From NCBI RefSeq assembly GCF_056712565.1, contig NZ_CM160072.1: DNA of 64,000 nt. The stretch is one strand, 5' to 3'. A program made the position numbers. Of this stretch, positions 6,001 to 12,000 are shown piece after piece (the stretch's first letter is position 1; each line of letters begins with the position of its first letter).

Positions 6001-9000
6001 GCCTGAAAGAGAACATGGGCACGCTGGAAACCTGGGCAGACAGGACAGCACGGGCATTCAAATCCATGTGGGATGCGGTGCTGGATATTGGTCGTCCTGA
6101 TACCGCTCAGGAGATGCTGATTAAGGCAGAGGCTGCGTTTAAGAAAGCGGACGACATCTGGAATCTGCGCAAGGATGATTATTTTGTTAACGATGAAGCG
6201 CGGGCGCGTTACTGGGATGATCGTGAAAAGGCCCGTCTTGCGCTTGAAGCCGCCCGAAAGAAGGCTGAACAGCAGAGTCAACAGGACAAAAATGCGCAGC
6301 AGCAGAGCGATACCGAAGCATCACGGCTGAAATATACCGAAGAGGCGCAGAAGGCTTACGAACGGCTGCAGACACCGCTGGAGAAATATACCGCCCGTCA
6401 GGAAGAACTGAACAAGGCACTGAAAGACGGGAAAATCCTGCAGGCAGATTACAACACGCTGATGGCGGCGGCGAAAAAGGATTATGAAGCGACGCTGAAA
6501 AAGCCGAAACAGTCCGGCGTGAAGGTGTCTGCGGGCGATCGTCAGGAAGACAGTGCTCATGCTGCCCTGCTGACGCTTCAGGCTGAACTCCGGACGCTGG
6601 AGAAGCATGCCGGAGCAAATGAGAAAATCAGCCAGCAGCGCCGGGATTTGTGGAAGGCGGAGAGTCAGTTCGCGGTACTGGAGGAGGCGGCGCAACGTCG
6701 CCAGCTGTCTGCACAGGAGAAATCCCTGCTGGCGCATAAAGATGAGACGCTGGAGTACAAACGCCAGCTGGCTGCACTTGGCGACAAGGTTACGTATCAG
6801 GAGCGCCTGAACGCGCTGGCGCAGCAGGCGGATAAATTCGCACAGCAGCAACGGGCAAAACGGGCCGCTATTGATGCGAAAAGCCGGGGGCTGACTGACC
6901 GGCAGGCAGAACGGGAAGCCACGGAACAGCGCCTGAAGGAACAGTATGGCGATAATCCTCTGGCGCTGAATAACGTCATGTCAGAGCAGAAAAAGACCTG
7001 GGCGGCTGAAGACCTGCTTCGCGGGAACTGGATGGCAGGCCTGAAGTCCGGCTGGAGTGAGTGGGAAGAGAGTGCCACGGACAGTATGTCGCAGGTTAAA
7101 AGTGCTGCCACGCAGACCTTTGATGGTATTGCGCAGAATATGGCGGCGATGCTGACCGGCAGTGAACAGAACTGGCGCAGCTTCACCCGTTCCGTGCTGT
7201 CCATGATGACAGAAATTCTGCTTAAGCAGGCAATGGTGGGGATTGTCGGGAGTATCGGCAGCGCTATTGGCGGGGCTGTTGGTGGCGGCGCATCCGCGTC
7301 AGGCGGTACAGCCATTCAGGCCGCTGCGGCGAAACTCCATTTTGCAACCGGAGGATTTACGGGAACCGGCGGCAAATATGAGCCAGCGGGGATTGTTCAC
7401 CGTGGTGAATTTGTCTTCACGAAGGAGGCAACCAGCCGGATTGGCGTGGGAAATCTCTACCGGCTGATGCGCGGCTATGCCACCGGCGGTTATGTCGGTG
7501 GCACCGGAAGTCCGGCGCAAATGCGGCGTTCAGAGGGTATCAGGTTTGAGCAGAACAACAACGTGGTGATTCAGAACGACGGTACGAATGGTCTGCCAGG
7601 TCCACAGATGATGAAGGCGGTGTATGACATGGCCCGCAAGGGTGCCCGTGATGAAATCCAGGCACAGATGCGCGATGGTGGTCTGTTCTCCGGAGGTGGA
7701 CGATGAAAACCTTCCGCTGGAAAGTGAAACCCGGGATGGATGTGACATCGGCTCCTTCCGTCAGGGAGGTGCGCTTTGGTGATGGCTATTCCCAGCGTGC
7801 GCCTGCCGGGCTGAACGCTGACCTGAAAACGTACAGCGTGACGCTGTCTGTCTCCCGTGAGGAGGCCACGGCGCTGGAGTCGTTTCTGGCTGAGCACGGG
7901 GGCTGGAAGGCCTTTCTGTGGACGCCGCCTTATGGTTACAGGCAGATAAAGGTGACCTGCGCAAAATGGTCGTCGCGGGTCAGTATGCTGCGTGTTGAGT
8001 TCAGCGCAGAGTTTGAACAGGTGGTGAACTGATGCAGGATATCCGGCAGGAAACATTGAATGAATGCACCCGTGCGGAGCAGTCGGCCAGCGTGGTGCTC
8101 TGGGAAATCGATCTGACAGAGGTCGGTGGAGAACGTTATTTTTTCTGTAATGAGCAGAACGAAAAAGGTGAGCCGGTCACCTGGCAGGGGCGACAGTATC
8201 AGCCGTATCCCATTCAGGGGAGTAGTTTTGAACTGAATGGCAAAGGCACCAGTACGCGCCCCACGCTGACGGTTTCTAACCTGTACGGTATGGTCACCGG
8301 GATGGTGGAAGATCTGCAGAGTCTGGTCGGCGGAACGGTGGTCAGGCGTAAGGTTTACGCCCGTTTTCTGGATGCGGTGAACTTCGTCAACGGAAACAGC
8401 GACGCCGATCCGGAGCAGGAGGTGATCAGCCGCTGGCGCATCGAGCAGTGCAGCGAACTGAGTGCGGTCAGTGCCTCCTTTGTACTGTCCACACCGACGG
8501 AAACGGATGGTGCCGTTTTTCCGGGGCGCATCATGCTGGCTAATACCTGCACCTGGACCTATCGCGGTGATGAGTGCGGTTATCACGGTCCGGCGGTCGC
8601 GGATGAATATGATCAGCCGACTTCCGATATCACGAAGGATAAATGCAGCAAATGCCTGAGCGGCTGTAAGTTTCGCAATAACGTCGGCAACTTTGGCGGC
8701 TTCCTTTCCATTAACAAACTTTCGCAGTAAATCCCATGACAGAGACAGAATCAGCGATTCTGGCGCATGCCCGGCGATGTGCGCCAGCGGAGTCGTGCGG
8801 CTTCGTGGTGAGAGCGCCGGAGGGGGAAAGATATTTTCCCTGCGTGAATATCTCCGGTGAGCCGGAGGCGTATTTCCGGATGGCTCCGGAGGACTGGCTG
8901 CAGGCAGAGATGCAGGGTGAGATTGTGGCGCTGGTCCACAGTCATCCCGGTGGTCTGCCCTGGCTGAGTGAGGCCGACCGGCGGCTGCAGGTGCAGAGTG

Positions 9001-12000
9001 ATTTGCCGTGGTGGCTGGTCTGCCGGGGGGCGATTCATAAGTTCCGCTGTGTGCCGCATCTCACCGGGCGGCGCTTTGAGCACGGGGTGACGGACTGTTA
9101 CACGCTGTTCCGGGACGCTTACCATCTGGCGGGGATTGAGATGCCGGACTTTCATCGTGAGGATGACTGGTGGCGTAACGGCCAGAATCTCTATCTTGAT
9201 AATCTGGAGGCCACAGGGCTGTATCAGGTGCCGTTGTCAGCGGCGCAGCCGGGCGATGTGCTGCTGTGCTGCTTTGGTTCATCGGTGCCGAATCATGCCG
9301 CTATTTACTGTGGTGACGGCGAGCTGCTGCACCATATTCCTGAACAACTGAGTAAACGAGAGAGGTATACCGACAAATGGCAGCGACGCACACACTCCCT
9401 CTGGCGTCACCGGGCATGGCGCGCATCTGCCTTTACGGGGATTTACAACGATTTGGCCGCCGCATCGACCTTCGTGTGAAAACGGGGGCTGAAGCCATCC
9501 GCGCACTGGCCACACAGCTCCCGGTGTTTCGTCAGAAACTGAGCGACGGCTGGTATCAGGTACGGATTGCCGGGCGGGACGTCAGCACGTCCGGGTTAAC
9601 GGCGCAGTTACATGAGACTCTGCCTGATGGCGCTGTGATTCATATTGTTCCCAGAGTCGCCGGGGCCAAGTCAGGTGGCGTATTCCAGATTGTCCTGGGG
9701 GCTGCCGCCATTGCCGGATCATTCTTTACCGCCGGAGCCACCCTTGCAGCATGGGGGGCAGCCATTGGGGCCGGTGGTATGACCGGCATCCTGTTTTCTC
9801 TCGGTGCCAGTATGGTGCTCGGTGGTGTGGCGCAGATGCTGGCACCGAAAGCCAGAACTCCCCGTACACAGACAACGGATAACGGCAAACAGAACACCTA
9901 TTTCTCCTCACTGGATAACATGGTTGCCCAGGGCAATGTTCTGCCGGTTCTGTACGGTGAAATGCGCGTGGGGTCACGCGTGGTTTCTCAGGAGATCAGC
10001 ACGGCAGACGAAGGGGATGGTGGTCAGGTTGTGGTGATTGGTCGCTGATGCAAAATGTTTTATGTGAAACCGCCTCCGGGCGGTTTTATCGTTTATGGAG
10101 CATGAGGAATGGGTAAAGGCAGCAGTAAGGGGCATACCCCGCGCGAAGCGAAGGACAACCTGAAATCATCCCAGATGCTGAGCGTGATAGACGCCATCAG
10201 CGAAGGGCCGGTTGAAGGTCCGGTGGATGGATTAAAAAGCGTGCTGCTGAACAGTACGCCGGTGCTGGACAGTGAGGGGAATACCAATATATTCGGCGTC
10301 ACGGTGGTGTTCCGGGCCGGTGAGCAGGAGCAGACTCCGCCGGAGGGATTTGAATCCTCCGGCTCCGAGACGGTGCTCGGTACGGAAGTGAAATATGACA
10401 CGCCGATCACCCGGACCATCACGTCGGCAAACATTGACCGTCTGCGTTTTACTTTCGGCGTGCAGGCACTGGTGGAAACCACCTCAAAGGGGGACAGGAA
10501 TCCATCGGAAGTCCGCCTGCTGGTTCAGATTCAACGTAACGGTGGCTGGGTGACGGAAAAAGACATCACCATTAAGGGCAAAACCACCTCGCAGTATCTG
10601 GCCTCGGTGGTGGTGGATAACCTGCCGCCGCGCCCGTTTAATATCCGGATGCGCAGGATGACGCCGGACAGCACCACAGACCAGTTGCAGAACAAAACGC
10701 TCTGGTCGTCATACACCGAAATCATCGATGTGAAACAGTGCTACCCGAACACGGCACTGGTCGGCGTACAGGTGGACTCGGAGCAGTTCGGCAGCCAGCA
10801 GGTGAGCCGTAATTATCATCTTCGCGGGCGCATTCTGCAGGTGCCGTCGAACTATAACCCGCAGACGCGGCAATACAGCGGTATCTGGGACGGAACGTTT
10901 AAGCCAGCATACAGCAACAACATGGCCTGGTGTCTGTGGGATATGCTGACCCATCCGCGCTACGGCATGGGGAAACGTCTTGGTGCGGCAGATGTGGATA
11001 AATGGGCGCTGTATGTCATCGGCCAGAATTGCGACCAGTCAGTGCCGGACGGCTTTGGCGGCACGGAGCCGCGCATCACCTGTAATGCGTACCTGACCAC
11101 ACAGCGCAAGGCGTGGGATGTGCTCAGTGATTTCTGCTCGGCGATGCGCTGTATGCCGGTATGGAACGGGCAGACGCTGACGTTCGTGCAGGACCGACCG
11201 TCGGATAAGGTGTGGACCTATAACCGCAGTAATGTGGTGATGCCGGATGATGGTGCGCCGTTCCGCTACAGCTTCAGCGCCCTGAAAGACCGCCATAATG
11301 CTGTTGAGGTGAACTGGATTGACCCGGATAACGGCTGGGAGACGGCGACAGAGCTTGTGGAGGACACGCAGGCCATTGCCCGTTACGGTCGTAACGTCAC
11401 GAAGATGGATGCCTTTGGCTGTACCAGCCGGGGGCAGGCACACCGCGCCGGGCTGTGGCTGATTAAAACGGAACTGCTGGAGACGCAGACCGTGGATTTC
11501 AGCGTCGGCGCAGAAGGGCTTCGCCATGTACCGGGTGATGTTATTGAAATCTGCGATGATGACTATGCGGGGATCAGCATTGGCGGGCGCGTGCTGGCGG
11601 TGAACAGCCAGACCCGGACGCTGACGCTCGACCGTGAAATCACGCTGCCATCCTCCGGTACCACGCTGATAAGCCTGGTTGACGGTCAGGGTAATCCGGT
11701 CAGCGTGGAGGTCCAGTCCGTCACCGACGGCGTGAAGGTGAAAGTGAGCCGTGTTCCTGACGGCGTTGCAGAATACAGCGTGTGGGGGCTGAAGCTGCCG
11801 ACGCTGCGCCAGCGCCTGTTCCGCTGCGTGAGTATCCGTGAGAACGATGACGGCACGTATGCCATCACCGCCGTGCAGCATGTACCGGAGAAAGAAGCCA
11901 TCGTGGATAACGGGGCGCACTTTGACGGTGACCAGAGCGGCACGGTGAATGGTGTCACGCCGCCAGCAGTGCAGCACCTGACCGCCGAAGTCACTGCAGA

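Follow-up and report, generated by a model that had tools for sequence, protein, structure and literature searches.

Same-strand, out-of-frame dual coding is known from the Rz/Rz1 genes of phage lambda and from phiX174, where one frame dominates at each site, as it does at the junction of the tail genes K and I studied here. Unlike those overlaps, however, the K/I overlap involves only the termini of two genes (about 34 codons), neither gene being nested in the other, and it produces short extensions but no new protein. A further parallel lies within the same tail operon of lambda, where G and GT are likewise read in two frames over a shared stretch of mRNA, the downstream frame being -1. G/GT fuses its frames by a slippery heptamer, whereas K/I has no slippery site and I possesses its own start signals.

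The I family, with its ThiS/MoaD-like ubiquitin-like beta-grasp domain, has been described, and a processing relationship between the JAB domain of K and the ubiquitin-like domain of I has been predicted (PMC1779556, Iyer et al. 2006). K is absent from virions, in which cryo-EM resolves gpI residues 134/135 to 223 only (PMC10721106; PMC12617516). Mass spectrometry of virions gave one gpI peptide (9.87% coverage), the sequence of which is not listed (PMC10721106).

Organization of the K/I region

We analyzed a stretch of 64,000 nucleotides (contig NZ_CM160072.1 of assembly GCF_056712565.1), hereafter called the window. In the gene order H-M-L-K-I-J, K sits between L and I in the window, as annotated in lambda. 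The region is identical to phage ev017 over 1.6 kb, and the window K is about 97% identical to the K proteins of lambda-like phages. The features discussed below are collected in Table 1.

Table 1. Features of K, I, and their shared stretch (window coordinates)
Feature	Nucleotides	Residues	Strand	Remarks
K, tail tip assembly protein K	8736..9479	247 aa	+	ATG start; TGA stop 9477-9479
K Prok-JAB domain	8745-9029	4-98	+	Pfam PF14464, E = 4.4e-14
K NlpC/P60 domain	9066-9407	111-224	+	Pfam PF00877, E = 5.8e-13
K lineage-specific tail		226-247	+	from homologue alignment
I, tail tip assembly protein I	9377..10048	223 aa	+	ATG start
I N-terminal extension	9377-9415	1-13	+	before Pfam domain
I ubiquitin-like beta-grasp domain	9416-9667	14-97	+	Pfam PF06805, E = 9.7e-29
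I linker		between beta-grasp domain and C-terminal plug	+	Gly-rich, hydrophobic
I C-terminal plug	9776-10045	134-223	+	found in virions by cryo-EM
Dual-coding stretch	9377..9479	K 214-247 + stop; I 1-34	+	
Overlap, first half	9377..9415		+	K frame constrained: NlpC/P60 end, ...KWQRRTHSLWRHR; I residues 1-13 weakly constrained
Overlap, second half	9416..9476		+	I frame constrained: beta1, short helix, beta2, MARICLYGDLQRFGRRIDLRV; K residues 227-247 change freely
Shine-Dalgarno of I, GAGAGGT	9360..9366		+	within K codons E209-R210; 10-11 nt before ATG 9377
In-frame ATG	9416..9418	I Met14	+	where I begins in mEp013, the Morganella phage, and more distant phages
GTGA	9476..9479	I Val34 (GTG)	+	overlaps K stop TGA 9477-9479; I start in RefSeq NC_049948

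According to the ORF list and the sequence, K and I share 103 nt, that is, 34 K codons and the stop, and I is read in the -1 (+2) frame relative to K. An earlier note on this DNA had described an overlap of about 100 nt in different frames between 8736 and 10048, with K continuing for some 34 codons beyond the I start so that one stretch of DNA codes for both proteins. Its coordinates and codon count were exact, and the dual coding was confirmed by comparison with lambda: the reference sequence (NC_001416; K at 14276..14875, I at 14773..15444) has the same genes, order, and frame relation and annotates an identical 103-nt overlap. Within the overlap, the window departs from lambda at a single position, 9457 (C/T), which changes K (A241V) but is silent in I. 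The K/I overlap is genuine and was already known from the lambda annotation. It has stood in the annotated lambda sequence from the original GenBank record (J02459) onward.

The two sequences differ elsewhere. A 1-nt gap at about the counterpart of window position 8868 limits the annotated K of the lambda reference to 199 aa, whereas the window K is intact, as it is in phage 21, in ev017, and in lambda stocks that were sequenced again. Downstream, J has 1160 aa in the window, as in phage 21, but 1132 aa in lambda.

Both frames are open throughout the overlap, and Pfam domains enter it from either side: NlpC/P60 extends to residue 224 of K, and the I domain begins at residue 14. In K, the JAB/JAMM motif E...HxH...S..D (E19, H68, S69, H70, and D81) and the papain-like residues C121, H187, and H199 are invariant among 16 diverse homologues. 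The AlphaFold2 (AF2) model of K has a mean pLDDT of 93.9, and Foldseek matched its JAB domain to JAMM deubiquitinases (AMSH, PfJAMM1, and CSN5) and its NlpC/P60 domain to MepS and LytE. I aligns over its full length with lambda gpI (PDB 8iyk, chain I) with two substitutions, V50A and T165I, and its residues 133 to 222 align with PDB 9e7m. AF2 predicts a confident beta-grasp fold at residues 14 to 92 of I (beta1, 14-19; beta2, 29-33), while residues 1 to 13 are modeled with low confidence and predicted to be disordered (pLDDT of 57 for residues 1 to 10). At the end of this ThiS/MoaD-like domain, G96, the conserved glycine, is nearly invariant in the homologue alignment.

When viral contigs were searched with K as the single query, only relatives at 96 to 100% identity were returned, and these served for the population analysis of 77 distinct lambda-like K-I sequences. 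K is 247 aa long in 75 of them, and nucleotide diversity along K-I is minimal across the overlap.

Probable initiation of I at ATG 9377

The I frame contains a TAA at 9353-9355 and is open thereafter, ATG 9377 being its first start codon. The Shine-Dalgarno sequence GAGAGGT precedes it at a spacing close to the upper limit of what is usual. It includes the AGG codon of R210, the only AGG among the 21 arginine codons of K. The mRNA from -30 to +20 around 9377 has a minimum free energy (MFE) of -2.8 kcal/mol, which puts it in the least structured 2.2% of the 2300 windows compared. A similar lack of structure marks the K start (8736), in contrast to 9416 and 9476. Furthermore, the region 9330-9430 is less structured than its shuffles (z = +2.7), and we therefore rejected a hairpin that would mask the I start until opened by K translation. 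The ATG and the upstream GAGAGG are kept in all 77 distinct lambda-like sequences, although this is not independent proof of their use, since the K codons K214-W215 and E209-R210 constrain the same nucleotides. Its Shine-Dalgarno sequence, its unusually unstructured mRNA, and its conservation make ATG 9377 the start codon of I with the best support, and we infer that it is the one actually used.

The extent of the overlap hinges on this choice. If I started at Met14 instead (ATG 9416), only 64 nt would truly overlap, and the 13 codons ahead of Met14 would be untranslated, unless both starts were used. We consider this unlikely, even though several observations agree with it: Met14 falls opposite the first I residue of mEp013, the Morganella phage, HK225, and others (MTRIELGG versus MARICLYG), the Pfam domain of I begins at this residue, and the disordered residues 1 to 13 diverge freely in the Stx1-type sequence. 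However, the stretch upstream of 9416 lacks a Shine-Dalgarno sequence, and the mRNA there is moderately structured, more so than around 9377. Moreover, the Met14 codon is replaced by one for leucine in Stx1/PPompW-type phages, which retain the upstream ATG and its Shine-Dalgarno sequence. As judged from these alignments, the Met14 ATG is probably the ancestral I start and not the main start here.

We found no direct protein evidence for the N terminus of gpI, the N-terminal domain of which is not seen in virions. Our search of the lambda ribosome-profiling literature turned up nothing that addresses K/I, and a CRISPRi essentiality paper held nothing specific on these two genes. The N-terminal peptide expected only of a start at ATG 9377 is (M)AATHTLPLASPGMAR, while the Met14 product would begin with MARICLYG.

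Constraint in the two halves of the overlap

While the overlap itself was confirmed, its two frames are unequally constrained along its length. In the first half, 8 of the 26 possible K-silent, I-altering changes were seen (0.31), against 4 of the 33 that alter K and leave I silent; many of these variants stem from a single divergent sequence (L084). In the Stx1-type sequence, 6 of the I residues 1 to 13 differ, compared to 1 of the corresponding K residues.

The second half behaves in the opposite way. Of the 41 possible K-altering, I-silent changes, 13 were seen (0.32), compared to 0.37 for synonymous changes in the K region, and some of them reach 52/77, 20/77, and 19/77 sequences. Changes that alter I and are silent in K amounted to 7/45, every one of them a singleton. 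Consistently, variation shifts from the third codon position of K (9377-9415) to that of I (9416-9479). Across the 77 sequences, we counted 27 variants of the K tail versus 12 of the I N terminus, and residues 1 to 35 of I are identical in 65/77 sequences, the K frame varying over the same stretch. Purifying selection in each half thus appears to act mainly on one frame, the K tail and I residues 1 to 13 showing no clear constraint, although these counts are small (13 to 22 sites per codon position in each half). The pattern makes a neat textbook example of how a terminal overlap arises and persists.

The K tail deserves a separate comment. Alignments with distant K homologues stop at residues 226 to 231, and among the phages compared, a tail of about 20 residues occurs only in the clade of lambda, mEp013, and the Morganella phage. 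AF2 nevertheless models K residues 230 to 244 as a confident helix (pLDDT of about 93). This sits poorly with a purely neutral tail, which may instead serve some function compatible with residue changes. One could go further and suppose that these 20 or so residues form a functional amphipathic helix docking K on the ubiquitin-like domain of its predicted substrate I, or, alternatively or additionally, that I is made in two forms (Met1 and Met14). Such an arrangement seems to us rather improbable; if it were true, the surfaces through which protease and substrate interact would co-evolve and be physically linked by the overlap. The K tails of lambda, the Morganella phage, and mEp013 seem to share a motif (I-Y/F-x-D) that could have pointed to a function; we set it aside, as the conserved I motif G-x-L-x-R-F/Y-G in the other frame can account for it.

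The GTGA junction and a possible K-I fusion

The RefSeq record of the identical phage ev017 (NC_049948) starts I at GTG 9476, which leaves a K/I overlap of 4 nt and would make the long overlap an illusion of ORF calling. GTGA is a classic translational-coupling junction, and every lambda-like and Stx-type sequence that we examined carries the GTG. We nonetheless regard a start at this codon as very improbable. It would cost I 20 residues of its Pfam domain and, in the predicted beta-grasp, both strand beta1 and strand beta2, whereas homologues in the PDB and in other phages span the region upstream, and the identity of residues 1 to 35 reported above shows that the upstream I frame is clearly under purifying selection. 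In addition, the GTG lacks a Shine-Dalgarno sequence and lies in structured mRNA (69th percentile). Termination-reinitiation at this junction was rejected because the conserved domain of I already starts 60 nt before it.

Least credible of all is that the K tail is a sequencing error or a frameshift artefact, the latter being the outcome that the earlier note had named as fatal to its claim, or that the overlap allows K and I to be fused by a programmed -1 frameshift. I does lie in the -1 frame of K, fused I and K tail assembly proteins are reported in some prophages (PMC1779556), and the 1-nt gap elsewhere in the lambda reference K makes a sequence error conceivable. However, the K stop and length are the same in 75/77 sequences and in independently sequenced phages, and I carries its own Shine-Dalgarno sequence and AUG. 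Moreover, the K frame contains no slippery heptamer (X_XXY_YYZ) over its whole length, which led us to reject a programmed fusion. The only homopolymer run of at least 4 bases in 9350-9480 is GGGG.

K/I junctions in other phages

More diverse relatives were drawn from a tblastn listing spread over relatives and from 16 annotated regions. The 103-nt overlap is also annotated in phage 21 and PPompW, and in phage 21 a ribosome binding site is annotated at the position equivalent to the I Shine-Dalgarno sequence. In mEp013 and the Morganella phage, where I begins at the position of Met14, the overlaps are 58 nt. More distant I homologues begin about 2 to 6 residues ahead of beta1. In other siphophages of the lambda, N15/HK97, T1, and Dhillonvirus types, K and I are likewise adjacent and the I Shine-Dalgarno sequence lies in the 3' end of K, but the overlaps are short (1 nt in HK225 and LAU1, 10 in HK578, 13 in SSU5, 20 in Rogue1, and 26 in Skenny). 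S-CBS4 has no K/I overlap, and BR52a, PHB09, and Len carry extra genes between K and I.

Burkholderia phage FKKS2 was considered as a case of a K-I frameshift fusion and discarded: a strong GAGGAGG is located 6 nt before an ATA, which is explained more simply by initiation at a non-canonical codon or by an error in the sequence. The I frame of this phage contains no ATG, GTG, or TTG near the K stop.

Proposed origin of the overlap

We propose that K and I are the pair of a lambda-type tail module with terminal dual coding, that I is started independently at AUG 9377, and that the overlap arose in two steps; we put the probability of this reading at about 0.8. K would be a JAB and NlpC/P60 peptidase that aids tail assembly and is translated through to its TGA. 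I would combine an N-terminal ubiquitin-like domain with a trimeric C-terminal plug inside the tail tip, initiating on its own from the GAGAGGT embedded in K codons. Ribosomes translating K would cross the I start site and terminate 100 nt beyond it, and K translation may affect I expression. The weakly constrained end of each gene would thereby lie over the conserved end of the other: I residues 1 to 13 over the last NlpC/P60 strand of K, and K residues 227 to 247 over the first two ubiquitin-like strands of I.

In a first step, the original stop of K presumably disappeared and translation of K ran on for about 20 codons within I, creating the 58-nt overlap that mEp013 and the Morganella phage retain. 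In a second step, I of the lambda/Stx-type lineage would have moved its start 13 codons ahead of Met14 by acquiring a new AUG together with a new Shine-Dalgarno sequence. Sequence comparison makes such a two-step origin probable, the order of the steps being our reconstruction. Overlapping codons for K, the predicted protease, and I, its predicted substrate, guarantee joint inheritance and expression of the two; any regulatory role of the overlap is hypothetical.

Annotation and engineering of the tail tip module

The novelty of the overlap is slight, and its main value lies in annotation correction. Automatic pipelines truncate I, to 190 aa in RefSeq ev017 and to 133 aa in the Morganella phage. 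Modeling or engineering of the tail tip module should use a K of 247 aa and an I of 223 aa, and mutations placed in 9377-9479 affect K and I alike.

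The K/I overlap is conserved and is that of lambda

The earlier note had described the tail assembly genes K and I as sharing about 100 nt in different frames; this description is exact according to both the ORF list and the sequence. The I frame is -1 relative to K; a TAA at 9353-9355 precedes the open I frame, whose first start codon is ATG 9377.

Coordinates of K, I, and the stretch that they share
Feature	Position	Strand	Extent	Source
Gene K	8736..9479	+	247 aa	ORF list and sequence
Gene I	9377..10048	+	223 aa	ORF list and sequence
Shared stretch	9377..9479	+	103 nt (34 K codons and the stop)	

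The comparison with lambda that the same note had proposed revealed an identical 103-nt overlap between the annotated K (14276..14875) and I (14773..15444). The overlap has thus been on record since the original GenBank entry, J02459. That the K extension could be a frameshift artefact was refuted: among 77 distinct lambda-like K-I sequences, drawn from 80 viral contigs and reference phages, 75 keep both the K stop and the 247-aa length. The overlap is also present in phage 21 (K, 247 aa; I, 223 aa; ribosome binding site annotated) and PPompW. Positions 8600-10200 match phage ev017 at 100% identity, and phage 21 and lambda-like phages at about 97 to 98%, and inside the overlap a single base (9457) differs from lambda, which results in A241V in K and is silent in I. 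The overlap is therefore real, conserved, and the same as the lambda arrangement. It is not new and its interest is low; it is useful as an annotation correction and as a clear example of terminal gene overlap.

A side observation concerns one base that is present in the window, in phage 21, and in PPompW but missing from the lambda reference (J02459, NC_001416, and two other lambda records). The site lies between GGAGGC and TATTTCC, at about 8868 in the window, about 1270 in the lambda region compared (L001), and about 14269 in lambda. The missing base splits K, which explains the 199-aa lambda K annotated from 14276. This gap is probably an error in the 1982 lambda sequence, since re-sequenced stocks and derivatives (LC730321 [48,503 bp], PV340536, KT232076, DE3, lambda imm21, and imm434) carry the extra base, as one-gap matches. 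The intact K has 247 aa and includes the JAB catalytic Glu19, and the lambda-annotated K start (window 8880) falls in strongly structured mRNA.

K, which follows the ORF for gpL, harbors two domains, Prok-JAB at residues 4-98 and NlpC/P60 at residues 111-224. Its AlphaFold model (mean pLDDT, 93.9) matches JAMM deubiquitinases and MepS/LytE-type endopeptidases. The I protein has a Lambda_tail_I domain at residues 14-97 and differs from lambda gpI (PDB 8iyk) by two substitutions. In the virion, gpK was not detected by mass spectrometry and is unresolved in either structure, and only residues 134/135-223 of gpI are visible, as the trimeric plug of the tail tip (PMC10721106; PMC12617516). The N-terminal part of I has been described as a ThiS/MoaD-like ubiquitin-like domain with a conserved glycine at its end, and the K JAB domain has been predicted to cleave it off (Iyer, Burroughs and Aravind; PMC1779556).

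Prediction of the I start

Of the candidate starts, ATG 9377 is favored over the in-frame ATG 9416 (Met14) as the predicted I start. GAGAGGT, located 10 to 11 nt 5' of ATG 9377, is invariant in 77/77 sequences, and its AGG is the sole one among the 21 Arg codons of K; both the ATG and this Shine-Dalgarno sequence are also under constraint from K's own codons. A search for protein-level support for this N-terminus found none. Predicted mRNA folding from -30 to +20 of 9377 gave -2.8 kcal/mol, a value within the least structured 2.2% of 2300 windows. In the same ranking, the K start at 8736 was similarly open (0.5%), and 9416 and 9476 ranked at 18% and 69%, respectively. Furthermore, the 101 nt from 9330 to 9430 showed less structure than did 199 of the 200 shuffled sequences. 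In Stx1/PPompW-type phages, Leu replaces Met14, and the upstream ATG and Shine-Dalgarno sequence are kept. The N-terminal peptide expected is (M)AATHTLPLASPGMAR from 9377 and MARICLYGDLQR from Met14. In lambda, positions 14773, 14812, and 14872 correspond to 9377, 9416, and 9476.

For the identical phage ev017, the RefSeq I gene begins at GTG 9476 (Val34), which would give a protein of 190 aa and an overlap of 4 nt, but this start cannot be the whole story. Indeed, the Pfam domain begins at I residue 14, AlphaFold places strands 14-19 and 29-33 within a confident beta-grasp (pLDDT 87-92), and the I homologues of other phages align across the segment upstream of 9476. Moreover, 65 of the 77 sequences share the same I residues 1-35, compared to 27 variants of the K tail.

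A K-I frameshift fusion is unlikely because no slippery heptamer was found in the K frame. Independent internal initiation of I within K is the most likely predicted arrangement. Initiation would occur at an open ribosome binding site inside K, and K-translating ribosomes would cross this site and terminate 100 nt further on. mRNA folding gave no hairpin masking the I start.

I is annotated too short in ev017 (190 aa in RefSeq, starting at the GTG that overlaps the K stop; L003 1477-2049; NC_049948 15142..15714), in Morganella phage IME1369_01 (133 aa; L085 2319-2720), and in Burkholderia phage FKKS2 (154 aa; L089 2337-2801); in all three, homology to the gpI ubiquitin-like domain extends upstream of the annotated start. 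In vB_FKKS2, ATG, GTG, and TTG are all missing from the I frame near the K stop (L089 2208-2260), and a strong GAGGAGG is found 6 nt 5' of ATA codon 2226, where other phages start I; this suggests that I starts at the non-canonical ATA or that the sequence contains an error.

Constraint along the overlap

Variation falls at codon position 3 of K in the K-only region and at position 3 of I in the I-only region, and inside the overlap this pattern switches at about 9416. At 9377-9415, 8 of 26 possible I-only-altering changes (0.31) and 4 of 33 K-only-altering ones (0.12) were seen; at 9416-9476, the counts were 7/45 (0.16), all singletons, and 13/41 (0.32), the synonymous rate of the K-only region being 0.37. 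In this second segment, the K-only changes R229H, Y237C, and A241V occur in 52, 20, and 19 of the 77 sequences. Base 9446 is shared by the codons of Y237 and of I Q24, a residue that is Arg in several homologues. The counts and the switch show that, in each half, constraint comes mainly from the gene with its conserved domain there. The other gene contributes a weakly constrained terminal extension, namely, I residues 1-13, which are predicted to be disordered, and K residues 227-247, which end in DLAAASTFV. One result is discordant: AlphaFold gives K residues 230-244 as a helix (pLDDT about 93), and the K tail may therefore be structured although it tolerates substitutions.

Across K-I, nucleotide diversity is lowest at 9336-9456. 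In lambda-like sequences, pi reaches 0.16 to 0.30 at 9546-9870, across the second half of the I ubiquitin-like domain and a Gly-rich hydrophobic linker, compared to about 0.02 to 0.07 in K and the overlap and about 0.05 to 0.08 in the I C-terminal plug. This segment looks like a mosaic/recombination segment or a hypervariable linker.

Origin of the overlap and neighboring elements

Conservation of K in 16 diverse phages extends to R-H (K 224-225), after which just 2 to 14 residues follow, and I starts 2 to 6 residues ahead of beta1; their K/I overlaps are of 1 to 26 nt, absent, or broken by inserted genes. In many of them the K tail includes K-D, whose codons, AAGGA(T), form the Shine-Dalgarno sequence for I. 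Among the phages compared, a K tail of about 20 residues is restricted to lambda-like, Stx-type, mEp013, and Morganella-phage K proteins. I starts at ATG 2166 in mEp013 and at GTG 2154 in the Morganella phage, the latter preceded by GGAGG at 8 nt; both starts align with lambda Met14, with a 58-nt overlap. The simplest history would be one of two steps: K read through into I, and I of the lambda/Stx lineage then gained a new start 13 codons upstream.

In four distant phages (L088, L087, L098, and L092), the codons of the conserved C-terminal K-D of K (AAG GAT, or AAGGAG/AGGAAG variants) double as the I Shine-Dalgarno sequence. The lambda lineage has R-A in place of K-D, this role is lost, and a new Shine-Dalgarno sequence lies 39 nt further upstream.

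Pseudomonas phage BR52a (L091 2242-2991), Bordetella phage PHB09 (L093 2275-2735), and Vibrio phage Len (L090 2246-3225) carry extra genes between K and I or right after K; in Len, one of these lies on the opposite strand and has the annotation DNA binding protein (anti-repressor structure). In some lineages, therefore, accessory genes appear to insert at the K-I junction.

Downstream of I and ahead of J, a GC-rich hairpin (CCGCC-TCCG-GGCGG) with a trailing TTTT occupies about 10067-10090, and a terminator is annotated at the equivalent site of phage 21. This would be a terminator-like element in the late operon, curiously placed just 5' of J. J itself (10109-13591) has 1160 aa, as in phage 21 (3483 nt), whereas lambda gpJ is listed at 1132 aa; its receptor-binding end therefore probably differs from that of lambda.
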